Positions 2,039 through 38,459 of a stretch of DNA of 38,621 bases are shown one piece after another. The notes under the pieces were generated by a model. It searched no databases. It saw only the letters and a program-made list of their open reading frames with translations, and was not told the DNA's origin. Source of the stretch: a virus (lineage: Duplodnaviria; Caudoviricetes). How positions within the stretch are numbered: the stretch's first letter is position 1; each line of letters opens with the position of its first letter. The stretch is taken from positions 1 to 38,621 of the IMG/VR virus record IMGVR_UViG_3300032281_000336; one strand, written 5' to 3'. A program made the position numbers and the translations under genes.

Positions 2039-2172
2039 TATTTTATCCTCCTGTTCAATTCATTAACGATTTCATCGCCATACTTTGAGGTGTGCTGATT
2101 CTTCACCATTAGTGAGTCCAGCTTGTCTCTAAGCTGAAAGCGTTTCATTTTATTGATTTTTTTGTGTTTCAT
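2038..2172 (-). CDS. 44-aa basic early protein (not in ORF track)
   Basis: MKHKKINKMKRFQLRDKLDSLMVKNQHTSKYGDEIVNELNRRIK; TAATG stop/start overlap with the DUF932 gene. Confidence 0.65.
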   Translation of the reverse strand: MKHKKINKMKRFQLRDKLDSLMVKNQHTSKYGDEIVNELNRRIK

Positions 2173-2178
2173 TGTGTT

Positions 2179-2280
2179 TTATTTTTTCCTATTTAATAGG
2201 ACATATACCGCACCCCAGAAGAATCCTGCCACAAGGCAAAGAATCCCGAAGGTGAGGAGAGTCCAAGTTTCGTTTTGCAT
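2179..2280 (-). CDS. 33-aa single-TM peptide, first early gene, probably leaderless (not in ORF track)
   Basis: MQNETWTLLTFGILCLVAGFFWGAVYVLLNRKK; ATG follows the -10 box after 6 nt. Confidence 0.6.
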   Translation of the reverse strand: MQNETWTLLTFGILCLVAGFFWGAVYVLLNRKK

Positions 2281-2942: not shown

Positions 2943-3215
2943 ATGAAAACACTATTAATTGCCTTAACCTTCCTAACCGCAACCTTACAAGCTGAAGATA
3001 ACTGGTCAGAGTTTTTAGGTGTGTCCCATCAGTCCAGAGGCACGACTACAATCGTGAACAACACAGCCTTCACCAGTACAGGTGTAGTGACTAAAGTTCG
3101 TGACACCTATTTCGGTGCTGGTGGAATCACCATTAAGCAGGGCGACAGCTATTATGGCCCTCGTACCTACACAACCAAGGTTGGTAGTGACTACTTTAGT
3201 AGTGGCTCTAGGTAG
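2943..3215 (+). CDS. Small secreted protein with ~14-aa beta-hairpin-like repeats
   Basis: Signal peptide MKTLLIALTFLTATLQA; repeats GVVTKVRDTYFGAG / GITIKQGDSYYGPR / TYTTKVGSDYFSSG; promoter directly upstream. Confidence 0.75.
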   Translation: MKTLLIALTFLTATLQAEDNWSEFLGVSHQSRGTTTIVNNTAFTSTGVVTKVRDTYFGAGGITIKQGDSYYGPRTYTTKVGSDYFSSGSR

Positions 3216-7015: not shown

Positions 7016-7039
7016 GAACCGCCTTGTGTTTTATTGAGC

Positions 7040-20368: not shown

Positions 20369-20962
20369 TTAAACTATATAACGCCTGTAGGCAGTTACTT
20401 TAGCTACATCATATTGATCAAAAATATTATGGTTTGCTGTCTCATCTTCTGAATCTTGTAAAGCCATAAGAGCTGTAGTCTCTTCTTCAGCACTAAAAGC
20501 TGAACCTGTTGAATCACCAATCATTCTCTGTTGAAACAACCTAGCAGACCTAACTACAATATAGTATCTGGCTTGTTCTGGAAGGTCTGTAAAAGGAAGC
20601 AAGTAAACAATTTCAGCTTTAATAGCTGAATCAAACAAAAATGTTTTGTTCTTTTTGTCGTAAAGACGTGTGCCTCTTTGGACAATATCAATGTTTGTAT
20701 AAGTACGTTTATCAATACTGATTCTTACAACATTGTTACCAAGAGTAATTTCTTTTGTACTTACATTCGGAGTAAGGGTAACTTCTTTTTCAGTATTCCA
20801 ATTCCAACCTTTAATCTGCGTTGCACGATCTACTTCTTGAAGGATGAGTTGAGCAATCCGAGTATCGGCGGTAGAGGCACTAATGCTATTGACAGGAGAC
20901 TCACCAATGGTGGTCAGCATTGTGTTGATTGCATCAAGCTCTGTGGAGGCAATTACTGGCAT
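20369..20962 (-). CDS. Tail tubular protein A / adaptor (gp11-like)
   Basis: TELDAINTMLTTIGESPV, GWNWNTE, RGTRLYD, LPEQARYYI. Confidence 0.93.
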   Translation of the reverse strand: MPVIASTELDAINTMLTTIGESPVNSISASTADTRIAQLILQEVDRATQIKGWNWNTEKEVTLTPNVSTKEITLGNNVVRISIDKRTYTNIDIVQRGTRLYDKKNKTFLFDSAIKAEIVYLLPFTDLPEQARYYIVVRSARLFQQRMIGDSTGSAFSAEEETTALMALQDSEDETANHNIFDQYDVAKVTAYRRYIV

Positions 20963-20977
20963 AGGGTTAATTTATAC

Positions 20978-21080
20978 AAAAAAGAGACCGCCAGCCAAGC
21001 TTAAATTCACTTCACTCGCCAAAGGGAAACACAATAACCTTTGGTTTGCCGAGGATGTGACAAGCTTGACTGACGGCCCC
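20978..21080 (-). ncRNA. ~100-nt extended hairpin plus U6 tract after the capsid gene (terminator position; candidate sRNA)
   Basis: 19-bp basal stem (21080-21062 with 21002-20984, 4 G-U pairs), inner helices UCAC/GUGA, CUCG/CGAG and CCAAAGG/CCUUUGG, 12-nt apical loop. Confidence 0.65.
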
Positions 21081-21096: not shown

Positions 21097-22083
21097 TTAG
21101 GTGTTGGTAATTTCAACCGCACACTCTGGACGGAGAACACCATGACCGACAGCATACTTGGCAACCATGAGGGTTGCTTGACGCTCGATCTGATATTCGC
21201 TCTCAACACCGATGTCGAGGAGCTTAACAGTACCAGTAGCATTAGGATGGAACACCACGCAAGCAGTCTTGGCAAAATAGCCTTGACGTGAGCTATGAGT
21301 GTTAGCATCGCTGGACAAGTCCGTGGAAGGAATGTTGTTGCTCTTAACGATGGTTGCACCACCGATCATAGCAATCTTTCCGTTCTCAAACACGCCAGTA
21401 ACGCCAGTATAAGGAGCTTTGAAGTCGCCCTTTGTGAGAGCTTCTACAACGAGCCAATACTGGGCAGGGCGAAGAGCTACATAGCGGTTATCGGAAGGAA
21501 CATCGTTCTCATCCAATTTCCGCAACGCAATCAACACCTGCTGTGCAAGTACCACGCCGTCTGTCAATGCGTTAGCAACTGACAAAACATTAGCACTAGC
21601 GTTCCAAGCATTTTCAGCTCCACCAGAGGCGAAGTTAGAAGCTACTCGAGCTGCGATAATGGTTGTCTGTGCAACAGCCTTATCAAACGTCTTAGCCAAC
21701 GCACGACCAATTTCAGACGAATAGACGGAACGCACATCATAGTGGTTCATCGCTTCATCGAGGTTGGAAAGCATCGCAGAAGAGGTCAAGAGACCTTCGA
21801 TTGCAATAACTTTTTCCGTGTGGGCCATATTGTTGAGGTAAGTACCCGTTTCAATCAAGCTGTCCCCCGGAGTGTGGTACTTGGACAGAGCCACGCCCAC
21901 AGCAGGGAATTGAGCCGATTTACCATTTTGAATGGTACGAGTGTTAGTGAGGTCTTTAAACACAGCCTCGGTTTCAAAAGTCGTCAGCACTTCGCCAGCG
22001 AACTTTTTAAGGAACAATTCGGATGCGTCTGCGCTACCGCCTTGTTTCTCACCGGGCCGAGAGATAACATTGGATAATGCCAT
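21097..22083 (-). CDS. Major capsid protein (gp10-like)
   Basis: LFLKKFAGEVLTTF, RTIQNGKSAQFP, YDVRSVYSSEIGRALA, GHGVLRPECA. Confidence 0.97.
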   Translation of the reverse strand: MALSNVISRPGEKQGGSADASELFLKKFAGEVLTTFETEAVFKDLTNTRTIQNGKSAQFPAVGVALSKYHTPGDSLIETGTYLNNMAHTEKVIAIEGLLTSSAMLSNLDEAMNHYDVRSVYSSEIGRALAKTFDKAVAQTTIIAARVASNFASGGAENAWNASANVLSVANALTDGVVLAQQVLIALRKLDENDVPSDNRYVALRPAQYWLVVEALTKGDFKAPYTGVTGVFENGKIAMIGGATIVKSNNIPSTDLSSDANTHSSRQGYFAKTACVVFHPNATGTVKLLDIGVESEYQIERQATLMVAKYAVGHGVLRPECAVEITNT

Positions 22084-22250: not shown

Positions 22251-22517
22251 TTATTTACTAGATTGAGGAGCTTTGTCAAGCCCTTCTTTAGCGTCAGCCC
22301 CTACAGAACCAGCGTACCAACCTTCGGGAATCTTTATCTTGTTCTGGCTCAATGCCCAATGCTCACCATCCCACACATAAACTTGACCAGTTACATTCGG
22401 CCCAATACGAACAAACCCACCAGACTCATCTACGAATACTACCTTTTTTGAGTCGGTTAAACTCGCACACCCTGTCGTTAAAAGCCCTACGAATATAAAG
22501 AGGCGGGGGAGAGCCAT
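22251..22517 (-). CDS. Lipoprotein (o-spanin-like)
   Basis: MALPRLFIFVGLLTTG-C lipobox; overlaps the upstream TM ORF; ATG at 22517 preferred. Confidence 0.65.
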   Translation of the reverse strand: MALPRLFIFVGLLTTGCASLTDSKKVVFVDESGGFVRIGPNVTGQVYVWDGEHWALSQNKIKIPEGWYAGSVGADAKEGLDKAPQSSK

Positions 22518-22821: not shown

Positions 22822-23580
22822 TTAGTTGAATACATTAGACCTGCCAAGCTTTTCTTCAACATCCTTTCGGTAGGCCGTATCAGATTTATACTTGGGGTTT
22901 TTCATGGCTTCAACGACTTCTGCTGTGCTTCTAAATACATCAGTTGGGCCAGAAATCCTCGTATCTCCAGCTAGGAGCCTTGGTTCCCGACCACCGATAC
23001 CGCTTTTAAACCGAGCATACATACCTTTAACAGCAAAAGAGGCTTGTTCTCTATTACCGCTAGATACAGCTTGATTATAGATATTCAAGTCATCTTCAGA
23101 CAGGTTCTCACTTGCCCATTCACTCATCGCTTTAAATTCAGTTTCACCGCCTACATCAGCGATGATAGCGTTAGATTCAGCCTGTTGGGTCGCCTCAAAG
23201 CCTTTCATATACTGATCGACATACTCTTTAGGGATGCCTTTTGTAGCCAATTCAGTATAAGTCTCATCAGAGAGCTTCCCGTTGGAGAAGTACTCTTCGC
23301 TGTACTTTTGGAAGCCAGCTACGGGCTGTTGGGTTCCGTCTTGAGGCTGGTCTGTCTTGGTTGCATCTTGTTTAGGCTGGCTGAATCGTTTCTCTAATTC
23401 AGAGTAGGATTTAGCCATTTCTTCTGGAGATTTAAACTTCTCTGGAAGCCAAGTAGGACGAACCTCTTGAGTAGTTGTTTGGTTATCCTGCTGGATAAGA
23501 CCGCCACCTCTAGGGTCAGCAATAGGCTGATTAGGTGCGTCAGCAGGTGTTTGAGTTACGGGTGTGCTAACTGCTTGCAT
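22822..23580 (-). CDS. Capsid scaffolding protein (gp9-like)
   Basis: RPTWLPEKF, MAKSYSELEK, VGGETEF, AMKNPKYKSDTAYR; follows the portal. Confidence 0.93.
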   Translation of the reverse strand: MQAVSTPVTQTPADAPNQPIADPRGGGLIQQDNQTTTQEVRPTWLPEKFKSPEEMAKSYSELEKRFSQPKQDATKTDQPQDGTQQPVAGFQKYSEEYFSNGKLSDETYTELATKGIPKEYVDQYMKGFEATQQAESNAIIADVGGETEFKAMSEWASENLSEDDLNIYNQAVSSGNREQASFAVKGMYARFKSGIGGREPRLLAGDTRISGPTDVFRSTAEVVEAMKNPKYKSDTAYRKDVEEKLGRSNVFN

Positions 23581-23607
23581 TGTGTGTTTACTCCTTTGTT
23601 GTGTTGT

Positions 23608-27662: not shown

Positions 27663-27961
27663 TCGTGTTCCCCCAATGTCAAGATATTACATTCCCGTGC
27701 AACCAAAGCTTCTAGCAAAGCCCCGGCACTCTTCTCAAACCCCGGAAGGAACACAATACGATCAGAGTTTAGAAGGTTTTTAATATCCTCCTTTAGATAC
27801 ATATACCTTGGCAGAGTAATATCCCCATCAAAGTTTTCTGCTGGATTACGAACTATGTACCCTTTAGCTCTTAACTCAGTAGCTTTAGCATGAAACGCAG
27901 GGTAGTTGTGATTCGGTAGTCCAGTCATCGCTCCGCTTATGTATACGCTCAAGGTTGCCAT
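27659..27961 (-). CDS. DUF4406-like (nucleoside deoxyribosyltransferase-fold) protein
   Basis: VYISGAMTGLPNHNYPAF...NPAE...LPGFEKSAGALLE. Confidence 0.8.
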   Translation of the reverse strand: MATLSVYISGAMTGLPNHNYPAFHAKATELRAKGYIVRNPAENFDGDITLPRYMYLKEDIKNLLNSDRIVFLPGFEKSAGALLEALVARECNILTLGEHE

Positions 27962-28692
27962 AGTATTACCTCATTGTTTTTGTATTCACCTTTTCTCAAG
28001 ATACGAGAAACCCTAGCTTGTACTAAGGCTTCTGATTCTGGAACGCCTTCTTTAGCGTAAGCCTTGAGAACCTTATCCCAGAGTCCAGTAGACCCCACAG
28101 GCCCAAGTATCTTTTCTGCGGTCTTTGGGCCACAGCCCACCAGCCCTGTGTAGCCGTCTGTCTGGTCACCCGTAAGGGCTTGGAATAGATGCCACCAATC
28201 GGCTTGCTCCTTGGATACCTCAATCACTCCTTCTTCAGCCTTGTGAGGGTTGTAATGCTTTGCTGGGAGCTGTTTAAAGTCCTTGTCCTCGCCAACAACA
28301 ATAGCTTTACCATCTAGCTCAGTAGCCCAGATACCCAGCAAATCGTCTGCCTCTAGGGTTGGTTGCATCTCGGCCTTATACTCAGCAACAAGCCATTCTC
28401 TAACCCTTGGGTAAAGAAGGGGCTTTCTAAGCTTTTTACGGCTTTCTTTGTAGGTAGGAAGAATCCTCTTTCTCCAGTTTGTGCTGTCGGACAAAGCTAC
28501 TTTGATACTATCGGCCTTCAGCTCCTCCTTTAGCTCTACAAGAAACGCAGTAATGGTCTGCGTAGCTGTTTTGACATCTCCGTGGAGAGTCCACATATCG
28601 TTGCCCCAATCACAGGGGTATTCATTGGTAATTGTATGCCAGAAGGCAAGCCAATCGCCGTCTATTAGTAGTGTGTTTTTTGTGTTTTTCAT
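27949..28692 (-). CDS. 5'-3' exonuclease (gp6-like)
   Basis: LLIDGD, NWRK..PTYK, LEADD, DKDFKQLP, GDQTDGY.GLVGCG. Confidence 0.95.
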   Translation of the reverse strand: MKNTKNTLLIDGDWLAFWHTITNEYPCDWGNDMWTLHGDVKTATQTITAFLVELKEELKADSIKVALSDSTNWRKRILPTYKESRKKLRKPLLYPRVREWLVAEYKAEMQPTLEADDLLGIWATELDGKAIVVGEDKDFKQLPAKHYNPHKAEEGVIEVSKEQADWWHLFQALTGDQTDGYTGLVGCGPKTAEKILGPVGSTGLWDKVLKAYAKEGVPESEALVQARVSRILRKGEYKNNEVILWQP

Positions 28693-30916: not shown

Positions 30917-30933
30917 GTTGTGTTTTACCTACC

Positions 30934-33504: not shown

Positions 33505-33554
33505 TTTGTGTTTTTACCTTTCTGTGTTTTGTGTTGTTGTGTTTTAGCTCTAGC

Positions 33555-33795: not shown

Positions 33796-36054
33796 TTATT
33801 TAATAAGGTAGGGACTATGGATTATCTGGTCAATATGAAAACCGCCGTAGAAAGGCTCTAAAATGAAGTTAGTAGGCAAACTAATAGATGAAGCTACTTC
33901 CGTCTTAAGAGCCTTGAGCAAAGGATTTTTAAATATGTCCCTCATAGTTTCTGCCACAACTTTCCTCATAGCAGGAACACGACTTGCATGACAACCAAAA
34001 CAATCGTGAATTGTAAAAAGGCTTTTTATGTTTGCCTTATTCATCCTCTGCACGGAGACATGAACAACACTTGCATCGAGGCTGTGAATGAAGTTGGGGG
34101 CAAAGCTATTGATCTGTGCTTCCCTGTCTAGCTTGCTGGTTATCTGGTTGGTTAAGTTCATGTACCTAATGGTGTCACCAATACGCAACTTGACGGACTT
34201 GGACTTGCTTACGAAATAGGGCTGGTATACAGGGAAACCAGAAGGACTAACCCATACCATAGGACAGCCATTGTCTGTTGGTATTTTGGCTAGTTGCTTC
34301 AACCAAACCATAGTCTCTTGTGGAGCTTGAACCAGTTCACCCAACGCTTTGATTATCAAATCAGCTAGGTAAAGCCCTTGGACTATAGAGCAGTTGGTTT
34401 GTTCCATAAGCTGTTGAGACATTCCATACCTAGATACCCCATACGGAATGGTCATAACGGGCCTCTTTACCAGCTTCCTGTCGCATCCGTGGTGCAACCA
34501 GAAGGTAGCCAGCTCCCCCGGAGTACCCAATAGGTTGTGTTGTACCTTTAGAGCTATAGCCCCGTAAATGTCCTTGGGTACATCGCTGGGTAGGACATTG
34601 GTGAGTAGGGCTGTCTCTGCATCGCCCGTGAGCAGGGAAAGAATCTGTAAGCCGTTACTCGTAGCATCTAGGCATACTGGATACCTTTCAGCTCCCTTAA
34701 CCCAAGCAAAGCACCACCTCAAGAATTGCCAAGGCTCGTCTGCTTCATGCCACCATTTGCATCCGTATGGGTCAGCAACGACTTTCCTAATATCGCTATC
34801 ATGCAATTCAGCCCACGCTACACGCTCCTCATAGCTAACCTTGTCACATCCAAAGTGAGCAGAACCAGCTACCTTGAACCAGTACTTGCCTTCCTCAGTC
34901 AAAGGAACGGCTTCATCAAAGTCACCCAAGGCTTTAGAGATGTCATCTCGCTGTGGCCCAATATGGGTAGGCAGGTAATACACCCGACCTCTGAAGTCTA
35001 GTTGCACGGGTAAGTAGTAGGGCTGGCCTTGGAGTTCTTTAGCCATGAGAATCTGTTGAGTGATGAAGTAACCCCTAGCTCTGTTCCAGACATTGTAAGT
35101 ATGCGACCTCCACATTCCCTTGATTCTGGCTTTGGCTTGGTCTGGGGTAAGAGCATCCAAGTTCTCCCTAATCACCTCCTTGTGGCAGTTCACGGGTTCC
35201 CCATTAATCTCTAGCCCGTTCTTGTAATAGGTATCCAGCACCTCTAGCACATCCGTATTAATCCTCCATGCCACCTGTTGCATACCATGTACGCAATCCC
35301 GTACAACTTCTGGCTGGGTCTTGTAAAGGGCTTCCTGCTTCTTTGATCTGCACTTAACCCAGAATACATTAGGGTCTGAACCAGCCTCTACCCTTGGAAG
35401 CATAAGAGGCCGAAGAACCTCCGTACCCTCAAACTCCTTCATCCACTCAGAACAGGATTTAGTTGCAACAATGTAGTTCATCCTCGTCTTACTAGTCCTT
35501 GTAGTCACCACCTCACAAAGCCCTGTGCTTTTAATAAAGAGTTCGATGAGTACGCCACCTATTGAAGCCTTCTCAATCGTACCCCAAGATATAGTCTTGT
35601 TACTCATCCCACGGAAAGCCGTCTGCATCTTGTGTCTATGCCCCTTGCGTAGTTTCATCCTCCTCTTGATTCTGTTCCACTCTTTACTGGGGCTTTCCTT
35701 TAGCCTTGCTTCGTGCTCTACAAGCCTACCTAGTTCAAAAGCTACAGAGGCAAAGGCTCTCTGGGTGGATATGCCATTCAGCACCGCCCTACAGGTGAGG
35801 GCCGAAAGCTCCAGAGGCTTTAGTTGCACCATCAAAGCAGCCGACTTGTGCTTGGGGCCGGGTGAAGTCTGGGCCTTATCAATCCATAGGGCTATTGTCT
35901 CAGCTACGGAAGCAACTGAATGGCGTAACAAGAAGCCTTGACCACCAGATAAGCTCTCCCTGCCAGAAGAGACATTCCTAGCCTTGGCTTTGTCCCGCTT
36001 TAGTTGTGCTTCGTATACTGCCTTATGGTCTAGTTGTGTTTGCGTTAAACTCAA
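33796..36054 (-). CDS. Single-subunit T7-type RNA polymerase (compact, 752 aa)
   Basis: LDFRGRVY, LDATSNGLQ (motif A), RKLVKRPVMTIPYG (motif B), APNFIHSLDAS, IHDCF (motif C). Confidence 0.97.
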   Translation of the reverse strand: MSLTQTQLDHKAVYEAQLKRDKAKARNVSSGRESLSGGQGFLLRHSVASVAETIALWIDKAQTSPGPKHKSAALMVQLKPLELSALTCRAVLNGISTQRAFASVAFELGRLVEHEARLKESPSKEWNRIKRRMKLRKGHRHKMQTAFRGMSNKTISWGTIEKASIGGVLIELFIKSTGLCEVVTTRTSKTRMNYIVATKSCSEWMKEFEGTEVLRPLMLPRVEAGSDPNVFWVKCRSKKQEALYKTQPEVVRDCVHGMQQVAWRINTDVLEVLDTYYKNGLEINGEPVNCHKEVIRENLDALTPDQAKARIKGMWRSHTYNVWNRARGYFITQQILMAKELQGQPYYLPVQLDFRGRVYYLPTHIGPQRDDISKALGDFDEAVPLTEEGKYWFKVAGSAHFGCDKVSYEERVAWAELHDSDIRKVVADPYGCKWWHEADEPWQFLRWCFAWVKGAERYPVCLDATSNGLQILSLLTGDAETALLTNVLPSDVPKDIYGAIALKVQHNLLGTPGELATFWLHHGCDRKLVKRPVMTIPYGVSRYGMSQQLMEQTNCSIVQGLYLADLIIKALGELVQAPQETMVWLKQLAKIPTDNGCPMVWVSPSGFPVYQPYFVSKSKSVKLRIGDTIRYMNLTNQITSKLDREAQINSFAPNFIHSLDASVVHVSVQRMNKANIKSLFTIHDCFGCHASRVPAMRKVVAETMRDIFKNPLLKALKTEVASSISLPTNFILEPFYGGFHIDQIIHSPYLIK

Positions 36055-36338: not shown

Positions 36339-36511
36339 TTGTTTAAATGTAGGCTGGCTTGCCGTAAGCTGTCGAATGATTTCAATAGCCGTTCATACAC
36401 ACGGGGTTTGAAGATGCCTGTTTCAAGTACCTGCTCAAAGACTCCCCACTTCTGAATGTATCGTCCATAGGAATCTGTAAGTTGCTTTATAAATTTATGA
36501 GTCTTTGTCAT
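36335..36511 (-). CDS. 58-aa hypothetical protein (not in ORF track)
   Basis: MTKTHKFIKQLTDSYGRYIQKW...; AGGAG SD; ATGA overlap with the next gene. Confidence 0.65.
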   Translation of the reverse strand: MTKTHKFIKQLTDSYGRYIQKWGVFEQVLETGIFKPRVYERLLKSFDSLRQASLHLNK

Positions 36512-36668
36512 TGTATCTCCTAATTTCTAGTTCTTCTTTTATTCCGTCTACGAATCTTTCTCCTAACCACCAGAGAAAACAAAGAAGCAATAAGCCAACT
36601 CCTAGCCCTACAGAGCCAAAAAGAATTAGCAGTAGGTAAATTGTTAGATCGGTTATTGTTTTGCACAT
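36495..36668 (-). CDS. 57-aa membrane protein (not in ORF track)
   Basis: MCKTITDLTIYLLLILFGSVGLGVGLLLLCFLWWLGERF...; TAATG overlap with the upstream gene. Confidence 0.6.
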   Translation of the reverse strand: MCKTITDLTIYLLLILFGSVGLGVGLLLLCFLWWLGERFVDGIKEELEIRRYNDKDS

Positions 36669-38292: not shown

Positions 38293-38459
38293 AGGACGAT
38301 TCCTTTCATGTACTCAACGACATACTTTAAGTACCCAACTAGAATCTCATTACCATTCCAGTTGACGACATCGGTTGGTTTCTTTCCCTCACAAATGCTG
38401 TTGTCGTATAGCAGTTGAAGGTTGTAGTAGTTGTCTTTGGTTATGGCTATGTGTTTCAT
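38289..38459 (-). CDS. 56-aa hypothetical protein upstream of the integrase
   Basis: MKHIAIT...ILVGYLKYVVEY; stop overlaps the integrase TTG start. Confidence 0.6.
   Translation of the reverse strand: MKHIAITKDNYYNLQLLYDNSICEGKKPTDVVNWNGNEILVGYLKYVVEYMKGIVL

Follow-up and report, generated by a model that had tools for sequence, protein, structure and literature searches.

Introduction

Regulation in T7-like phages is, in the textbook account, a matter of promoters, RNase III and terminators. In bacteria, GcvB is a stand-alone gene of ~200 nt whose RNA is Hfq-dependent. In enterobacteria and Pasteurella the single-stranded, G/U-rich seed of the GcvB RNA is directed at words rich in A and C that lie close to the start codons of many genes, with the target consensus AACACAACAT (PMC5900567, partial text). 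The phage sRNAs sar, OOP, c4, PreS and VpdS control translation by pairing; they are cis-antisense or few-target RNAs with promoters of their own, and the words 'capsid' and 'integrase' have 0 occurrences in the partial text of the review that covers them (PMC12197685). Regulatory sequence in a 3'-end hairpin loop or 3' UTR is described, in partial texts, for RepG (PMC8295292), for the terminator loops of SdsR, RseX and ArrS, which likely act without base-pairing (PMC11979758), and for CisR (PMC13250501), all of them host-encoded. Gene starts of cluster K mycobacteriophages carry a 13-bp repeat that contains a Shine-Dalgarno (SD) sequence, with one reverse copy in three phages, its function and partner being unknown (PMC3203893, partial text).

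Here, a hairpin at the 3' end of a phage capsid gene (the rod) was analysed computationally, following an original prediction that its loop is antisense to a motif at the starts of replication genes. The rod is real, conserved and statistically tied to gene starts. As in GcvB, a predicted accessible, G/U-rich seed is complementary to A/C-rich words at several starts; the GcvB consensus nearly equals the start motif of this phage and is found letter for letter ahead of its DNA polymerase gene.

Genome and position of the rod

The window, meaning the whole stretch of DNA analysed (38,621 nt), is a virus record, 99% complete, from a T7-like phage. Its minus strand carries RNA polymerase, SSB, primase/helicase, DNA polymerase, exonuclease, portal, scaffold and capsid genes, together with those for tail tubes, internal virion proteins, terminase and integrase. 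Capsids of the best-matching isolates are 47% identical to the window capsid. No tRNA or tmRNA was found. A host search in genome contigs via the tail-tube protein gave no match, and the best integrase matches, 38% (a Ferrovibrio MAG) and 28%, were too distant for host assignment.

The rod (20978..21080, minus strand) begins 16 nt past the stop codon of the major capsid gene (21097..22083, minus strand; phrog_267), its upstream neighbour and the likely source transcript. Downstream lies the tail tubular protein gene (20369..20962, minus strand; phrog_446). The rod thereby occupies what we take to be the place of the T7 post-capsid terminator T-phi, between capsid and tail-tube genes.

Other features were recorded nearby and elsewhere. 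The capsid leader (22230-22085, minus strand) holds a small hairpin of the GCCCC..CTRCGG..GGAYAAY type, common to G000, lineage v2 (below), G004, G024 and G029 and without an Rfam match; a TTGACA box lies near this leader, at 22279. The second strongest fold (-50.7; 22601-22492, minus strand) comprises two hairpins in small genes ahead of the leader. A 90-aa reverse-strand ORF (2943-3215, plus strand) with a hydrophobic N-terminus and no Pfam match is situated near the probable genome end.

Predicted structure

The minus strand of the rod folded at -56.1 kcal/mol (z -7.6; 0 of 200 shuffles equally stable), the plus strand at only -36.1, and among all 110-nt segments of the coding strand the one at the rod folded most strongly (-53.2 versus a mean of -23.0, sd 6.6). 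The basal stem has 19 bp, four of them G-U (21080-21062/21002-20984), and the apical stem 7 bp (21044-21038/21025-21019). The 12-nt apical loop, UUAUUGUGUUUC (21026..21037, minus strand), varies at its third base alone, A in lineage v1 and C in v2, and is predicted to be accessible, opening of 9 nt costing 0.7-0.8 kcal/mol. That base is the single v1/v2 difference in the otherwise invariant 26-nt apical stem-loop (21019..21044, minus strand), where the 3' arm, CCUUU, allows pairing to run on into a Shine-Dalgarno site. Six U residues (20978..20983, minus strand) follow the GC-rich helix end in the manner of a terminator. The description originally given of the rod (basal stem with its G-U pairs, loop coordinates, U6 tail) was borne out by fold and sequence, and the proposed single-stranded state of the loop agrees with the predicted fold and the low opening cost.

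The rod shares with 3'UTR-derived base-pairing sRNAs its place at the 3' end of an mRNA and a helix resembling that of an intrinsic terminator, followed by a U tract. It was missing from the list of a simple terminator scan because that scan allows only loops of 3-8 nt. A plain terminator of the T-phi type would be a short hairpin with a small variable loop; the rod has ~100 nt and a 12-nt loop with 11 invariant bases. Rfam covariance models, including GcvB, c4 and OOP, gave 0 matches in the window at the gathering score, on which ground membership of the rod in an Rfam family was rejected; one chance miRNA match lay elsewhere (E 0.78).

Conservation among close relatives

The rod was present in 20 of 20 viral contigs that reach the region (tail-tube identity of at least 69%), in one of them partially, beside capsids of 65-97% identity. 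In L190 (tail 66%) no rod was found within 170 nt upstream. The close relatives form two lineages, v1, which includes the window, and v2. The loop seed UUGUGUUUC is invariant in all close relatives that carry the rod; it is conserved more than its flanks and is matched by targets across lineages, single-target compensation being weak. Free variation of the loop beside a conserved start motif had been named as evidence against an antisense role; here the seed stayed constant, and several start-site motifs are lost in v2.

Stem changes between v1 and v2 leave the pairs intact. Among 6 distinct rod sequences 24 of 24 counted pairs were kept, with one two-sided and two one-sided changes; this covariation is not significant (82 of 500 shuffles did as well), and all of it comes from one lineage split. 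Three further two-sided changes in the middle stem, read by hand from alignment versus folds, belong to the same split. The v2 rod additionally has an unpaired anti-SD bulge, CCUCCUUU.

A scan with the loop pattern returned 54 matches, 20 of them homologues and the remainder chance. A covariance model of the rod, run on 65 sources, found its own clade plus a weak match in L005 (24.5 bits), so that the rods of other lineages are analogous or remote. Compared with the window, L081 and L082 have tail tubes of 100% and capsids of 69% identity, with a near-identical hairpin between the two genes, a pattern that represents capsid gene swaps.

The start-site motif

The loop was confirmed to be complementary to the motif named for it, AAACACAA. 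This 8-mer occurs 9 times in the genome against 2.5 expected (0 of 100 shuffles reached 9), with 8 copies on the coding strand and 1 reversed, the latter inside the rod loop. Starts came from a heuristic, with correction by hand in the window and v2. None of the 8 sense copies falls outside the -40..+25 stretch around a start, and such stretches make up 8.2% of the genome. The seed complement AAACACA ranks 1 of 12,100 7-mers for start enrichment, with 10 of 14 copies at starts, and ranks 3 in v2. That the loop is the single antisense copy of the 8-mer also held: three other reversed TTGTGTT copies exist in the genome, none of which fits it in full.

Copies on the minus strand stand twice before SSB (33506..33544; 8-bp matches), before DNA polymerase (30918..30925), 16 nt before terL (7024..7031) and at +13 of RNA polymerase (36034..36041); these four starts are without the motif in v2, though v2 keeps the seed. 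The copy in codons 2-5 of the exonuclease (28680..28687, minus strand) is kept in both lineages. The genes originally listed as bearing the motif do so, but the RNA polymerase copy falls inside the ORF (TTG start), and terL, which had been counted among replication or early targets, belongs to the late genes and serves packaging. Scaffold (-25) and capsid (-28) are likewise preceded by a shorter form, AACACAA. Most structural genes (starts 22083, 20365, 15863, 13522, 26429 and 26847) have a second class of start, AAUAAUAUG or AAUUUAUG, with which the loop pairs poorly.

AAACACAA might alternatively be a DNA or protein-binding site, either a start-associated sequence or a promoter element, with the loop copy as one reversed site; the single reverse-strand copies of the cluster K start-associated sequences in three genomes (PMC3203893, partial text) offer a precedent. 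We consider this very unlikely. The reverse copy coincides with the loop of a helix that contains four G-U pairs and is far more stable when folded from one strand than from the other; at the targets most variation is between A and G facing a U (gene 36511), as RNA wobble pairing would permit; and the spacing from motif to start ranges from -40 to +13.

Predicted loop-start duplexes

Duplexes were ranked with the opening costs of both RNAs using a ViennaRNA script, an IntaRNA-like approximation. The best predicted site (-14.2, rank 1 genome-wide) is a 14-bp duplex at early gene 36511 (58 aa) that takes in the SD, the spacer and the AUG (36507..36520, minus strand); it reaches -8 or lower in 6 of 8 v1 alleles and is lost in v2. 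A predicted 12-bp site (27663..27674, minus strand; -10.6) covers SD and spacer of gene 27662, which has a dATP/dGTP diphosphohydrolase domain (PF18909), and is strong in 2 of the 6 listed v1 alleles. Two seed matches surround the AUG of early gene 2172 (2162..2179, minus strand; -9.9); these are the two 9-nt matches of the original prediction, both present. At the scaffold start a 7-8-bp seed match (23578..23589, minus strand) is kept in v1 and v2, and the exonuclease likewise keeps a 7-8-bp site in both.

A further predicted site (38445..38457, minus strand; -9.8) lies just past the AUG of a 56-aa gene (38459-38289) whose stop overlaps the TTG start of integrase. This pre-integrase gene has 6 close homologues only and no family, and it is the sole strong site common to v1 and v2. 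A core of 8 bp is found in 8 of 8 v1 alleles, and v2, where the N-terminus differs, has 14 bp. Translation in v2 could really begin at an internal GTG, and the site would then lie in the leader. Only 2 of 8 v1 alleles form the 13-bp duplex, which leaves the apparent compensation from A-U to C-G weak, and the compensatory pair was downgraded. The leader of this gene also contains GUGUUUUUCCCUUUG, similar in the sense orientation to the loop and 3' arm of the rod. Upstream (38570-38460, minus strand, and 1-60) lie three direct repeats, ATTACCYGTRCGTTT, together with AT-rich TATATGAT repeats; they are kept in v2 and are possible attachment arm sites or an origin.

Five of 49 starts reached -8 kcal/mol or lower (36511, 27662, 2172, 38459 and 37104), compared with 1% of 150 non-start windows. 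The top three start duplexes beat 120 of 120 accessibility-matched loop shuffles in the window and 119 of 120 in v2, a genome pieced together from contigs overlapping at 97%; the best non-start duplexes were no better than shuffles (80 and 40 of 120 equally good). The count of strong starts and the mean were not significant in v2 (31 and 20 of 120 shuffles equally good). Most sites have 7-8 bp and background-level energy. RNA polymerase, SSB, DNA polymerase, exonuclease and terL, originally named as targets, are weak in that role: their duplexes have 8 bp and -6.1 to -6.9 kcal/mol, energies equalled by the best 6% of non-start windows.

At a threshold of -6 the loop matched 10 of 23 early/middle starts and 0 of 9 virion gene starts (p 0.018, the threshold having been chosen after the values were seen; rank test p 0.065). 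The corresponding counts in v2 were 11 of 23 and 1 of 6 (p 0.18; rank test p 0.04). The predicted bias toward early and middle targets is modest, and scaffold and terL also match. In the v2 primase/helicase gene (L294:11100-11125) an internal SD and AUG ~45 codons in match the loop over 11 bp, the duplex ranking second for this contig; this internal start presumably resembles that of T7 gp4B.

Rods and loops in other lineages

A crude rule sorted 122 distinct capsid-tail loci into 77 plain terminators, 26 large-loop hairpins and 19 rods, two of the 19 wrongly (G030 and L222 were misclassed). Most relatives have a hairpin of ~25-50 nt with a short loop at the same position. In another lineage the terminator is followed by a small hairpin, GTGCAG..CTGCAC, that is conserved in the capsid-tail spacers of L105, L107, L113, L115 and L116. 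In a tail-tube tree the deeper placement of the clade was unsupported (0.26-0.52), so a single origin of all rods is not established.

Cognate and swapped pairings were compared for the 12 genomes that have rods or large loops and enough genes. Across these related phages with different loops, own starts paired better than swapped ones (p 0.002), as they did with one representative per lineage (p 0.002; alternative representatives p 0.03), and non-start windows had no effect (p 0.48). Only 4 of 12 rods paired best with their own genome, and G023, G025, G027 and G006 had no cognate energy advantage. In 8 of 12 genomes the ten 7-mers most enriched at starts included the complement of an unpaired segment, a loop or bulge (p 0.003; ranks 1, 3, 1, 4, 57, 143, 4, 10, 3, 1, 19 and 832). 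Matches had been seen by eye before testing in 4 of the 12 (v2, G004, G006 and G008); the five genomes added afterwards gave ranks 4, 57, 143, 4 and 10. Among the predicted pairings, a bulge in G004, CCUUCCUU, pairs with AAGGAAGG at SSB and scaffold, G024 forms 12 bp at scaffold, and the G008 loop forms 10 bp over the RNA polymerase AUG.

These comparisons bear on two further explanations. The rod may be an enlarged intrinsic terminator or an RNase III or stability hairpin, whose U-rich loop matches A-rich starts incidentally, for instance after an inverted duplication, with the start motifs kept solely as translation enhancers. It stands where most relatives have plain terminators (the 77 loci above, by the crude rule), its helix, at 19-25 bp, is longer than the minimum of 11 bp for RNase III (PMC1540722, partial text), YAAG/CUUG recurs in basal stems of several lineages, ACA motifs alone enhance translation (PMC3879156, partial text), and most duplexes are short. 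Termination or cleavage, however, needs no invariant 9-nt loop seed; same-composition shuffles were worse at starts only, and lineage-specific loops follow lineage-specific start words. We regard an explanation by termination or processing alone as improbable.

The loop may also pair with starts to some other end: with host mRNAs, in decay or activation, or in cis with sequence downstream. Several related loops contain generic anti-AUG or anti-SD words, suited to other genomes as much as to their own, and no single phage target is as constant as the seed. In L020:3447-3592, L021:10958-11100 and L022:10916-11042 the loop CUCAUUU complements AAAUGAG directly 3' of the U tract, a possible pseudoknot or antiterminator in that lineage. 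Own-genome preference was nevertheless significant overall, and the window is without a downstream complement. Pairing in cis with the rod's own capsid leader was rejected, since L002 and L010 have an unaltered loop but no longer the match (8 loci compared). Such other uses appear unlikely, about as much so as a bare terminator.

Transcript data

A small part of the capsid region recurs in 24 RNA runs; the word shares are small and the capsid stretch was the basis for choosing the runs, so genes cannot be ranked by coverage. Contigs assembled from 8 of the 24 came from relatives and none was hairpin-only, contigs being unable to show RNA ends. One contig ends at 21048; another, of 15 kb and from a relative, spans the hairpin.

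Proposed function

On the sequence comparisons above, the rod is somewhat more probably than otherwise a multi-target antisense seed, borne on a terminator and GcvB-like, that would dampen early, middle and non-virion protein synthesis late. Conservation, start enrichment, shuffle controls and the cognate-versus-swapped comparison support the one-to-many seed as originally proposed, but the replication genes named as its targets are weak. As a multi-target seed, the rod would work as follows. The helix and U6 tract, at the T7 terminator position, would end and protect the capsid transcript, and the long stem would stabilise the RNA and keep the loop open. The seed UUGUGUUUC would nucleate on (G)AAACACA(A) and, at the best sites, extend over SD and AUG. 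Pairing would block ribosome loading, as GcvB does on ACA enhancers, and repression would set in once capsid transcripts are abundant, late in infection. The acting form may be the full capsid mRNA or a released fragment. Since the most constant strong site lies in a gene translationally coupled to integrase, integrase output may fall in late lytic growth.

More tentatively, and less probably than not, T7-like phages of lakes and seas may repeatedly have turned the post-capsid terminator into a lineage-tuned RNA against ribosome-binding sites, through which the capsid message throttles integrase, replication, scaffold, terminase and perhaps host messages. If true, the most abundant phage transcript would itself carry a late switch that acts on translation. 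With a terminator serving also as a multi-target antisense seed, these phages would gain a layer of timing beyond transcription.

Comparison with known systems

No description of such a capsid 3' RNA was found in the literature searched, a scope outside which most subscription journals fell, and the viral candidate structured RNAs of Fremin 2023 (PMC10690425) gave 0 matches in 6 of 9 supplementary files. The rod shares its helix and U tract and its long helix with the T7 T-phi terminator and RNase III sites (determinants in PMC1540722, partial text), but is three times longer than T-phi and has an invariant 12-nt loop. Unlike GcvB, it carries its seed in a hairpin loop at the end of a phage mRNA and is without an Rfam match. 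It resembles RepG, SdsR/RseX/ArrS and CisR in the placement of the regulatory sequence, although none of these, as far as the partial texts go, is a phage capsid 3' rod. With sar, OOP, c4, PreS and VpdS it would share the control of translation by pairing, but differs in its many proposed targets and in its place at the end of the capsid message. The start-associated repeat of cluster K mycobacteriophages is, like AAACACAA, a gene-start repeat with a lone reversed copy, unlike it in length and SD content; a loop-borne seed such as that proposed here would offer a candidate partner for such unexplained repeats in phage genomes.
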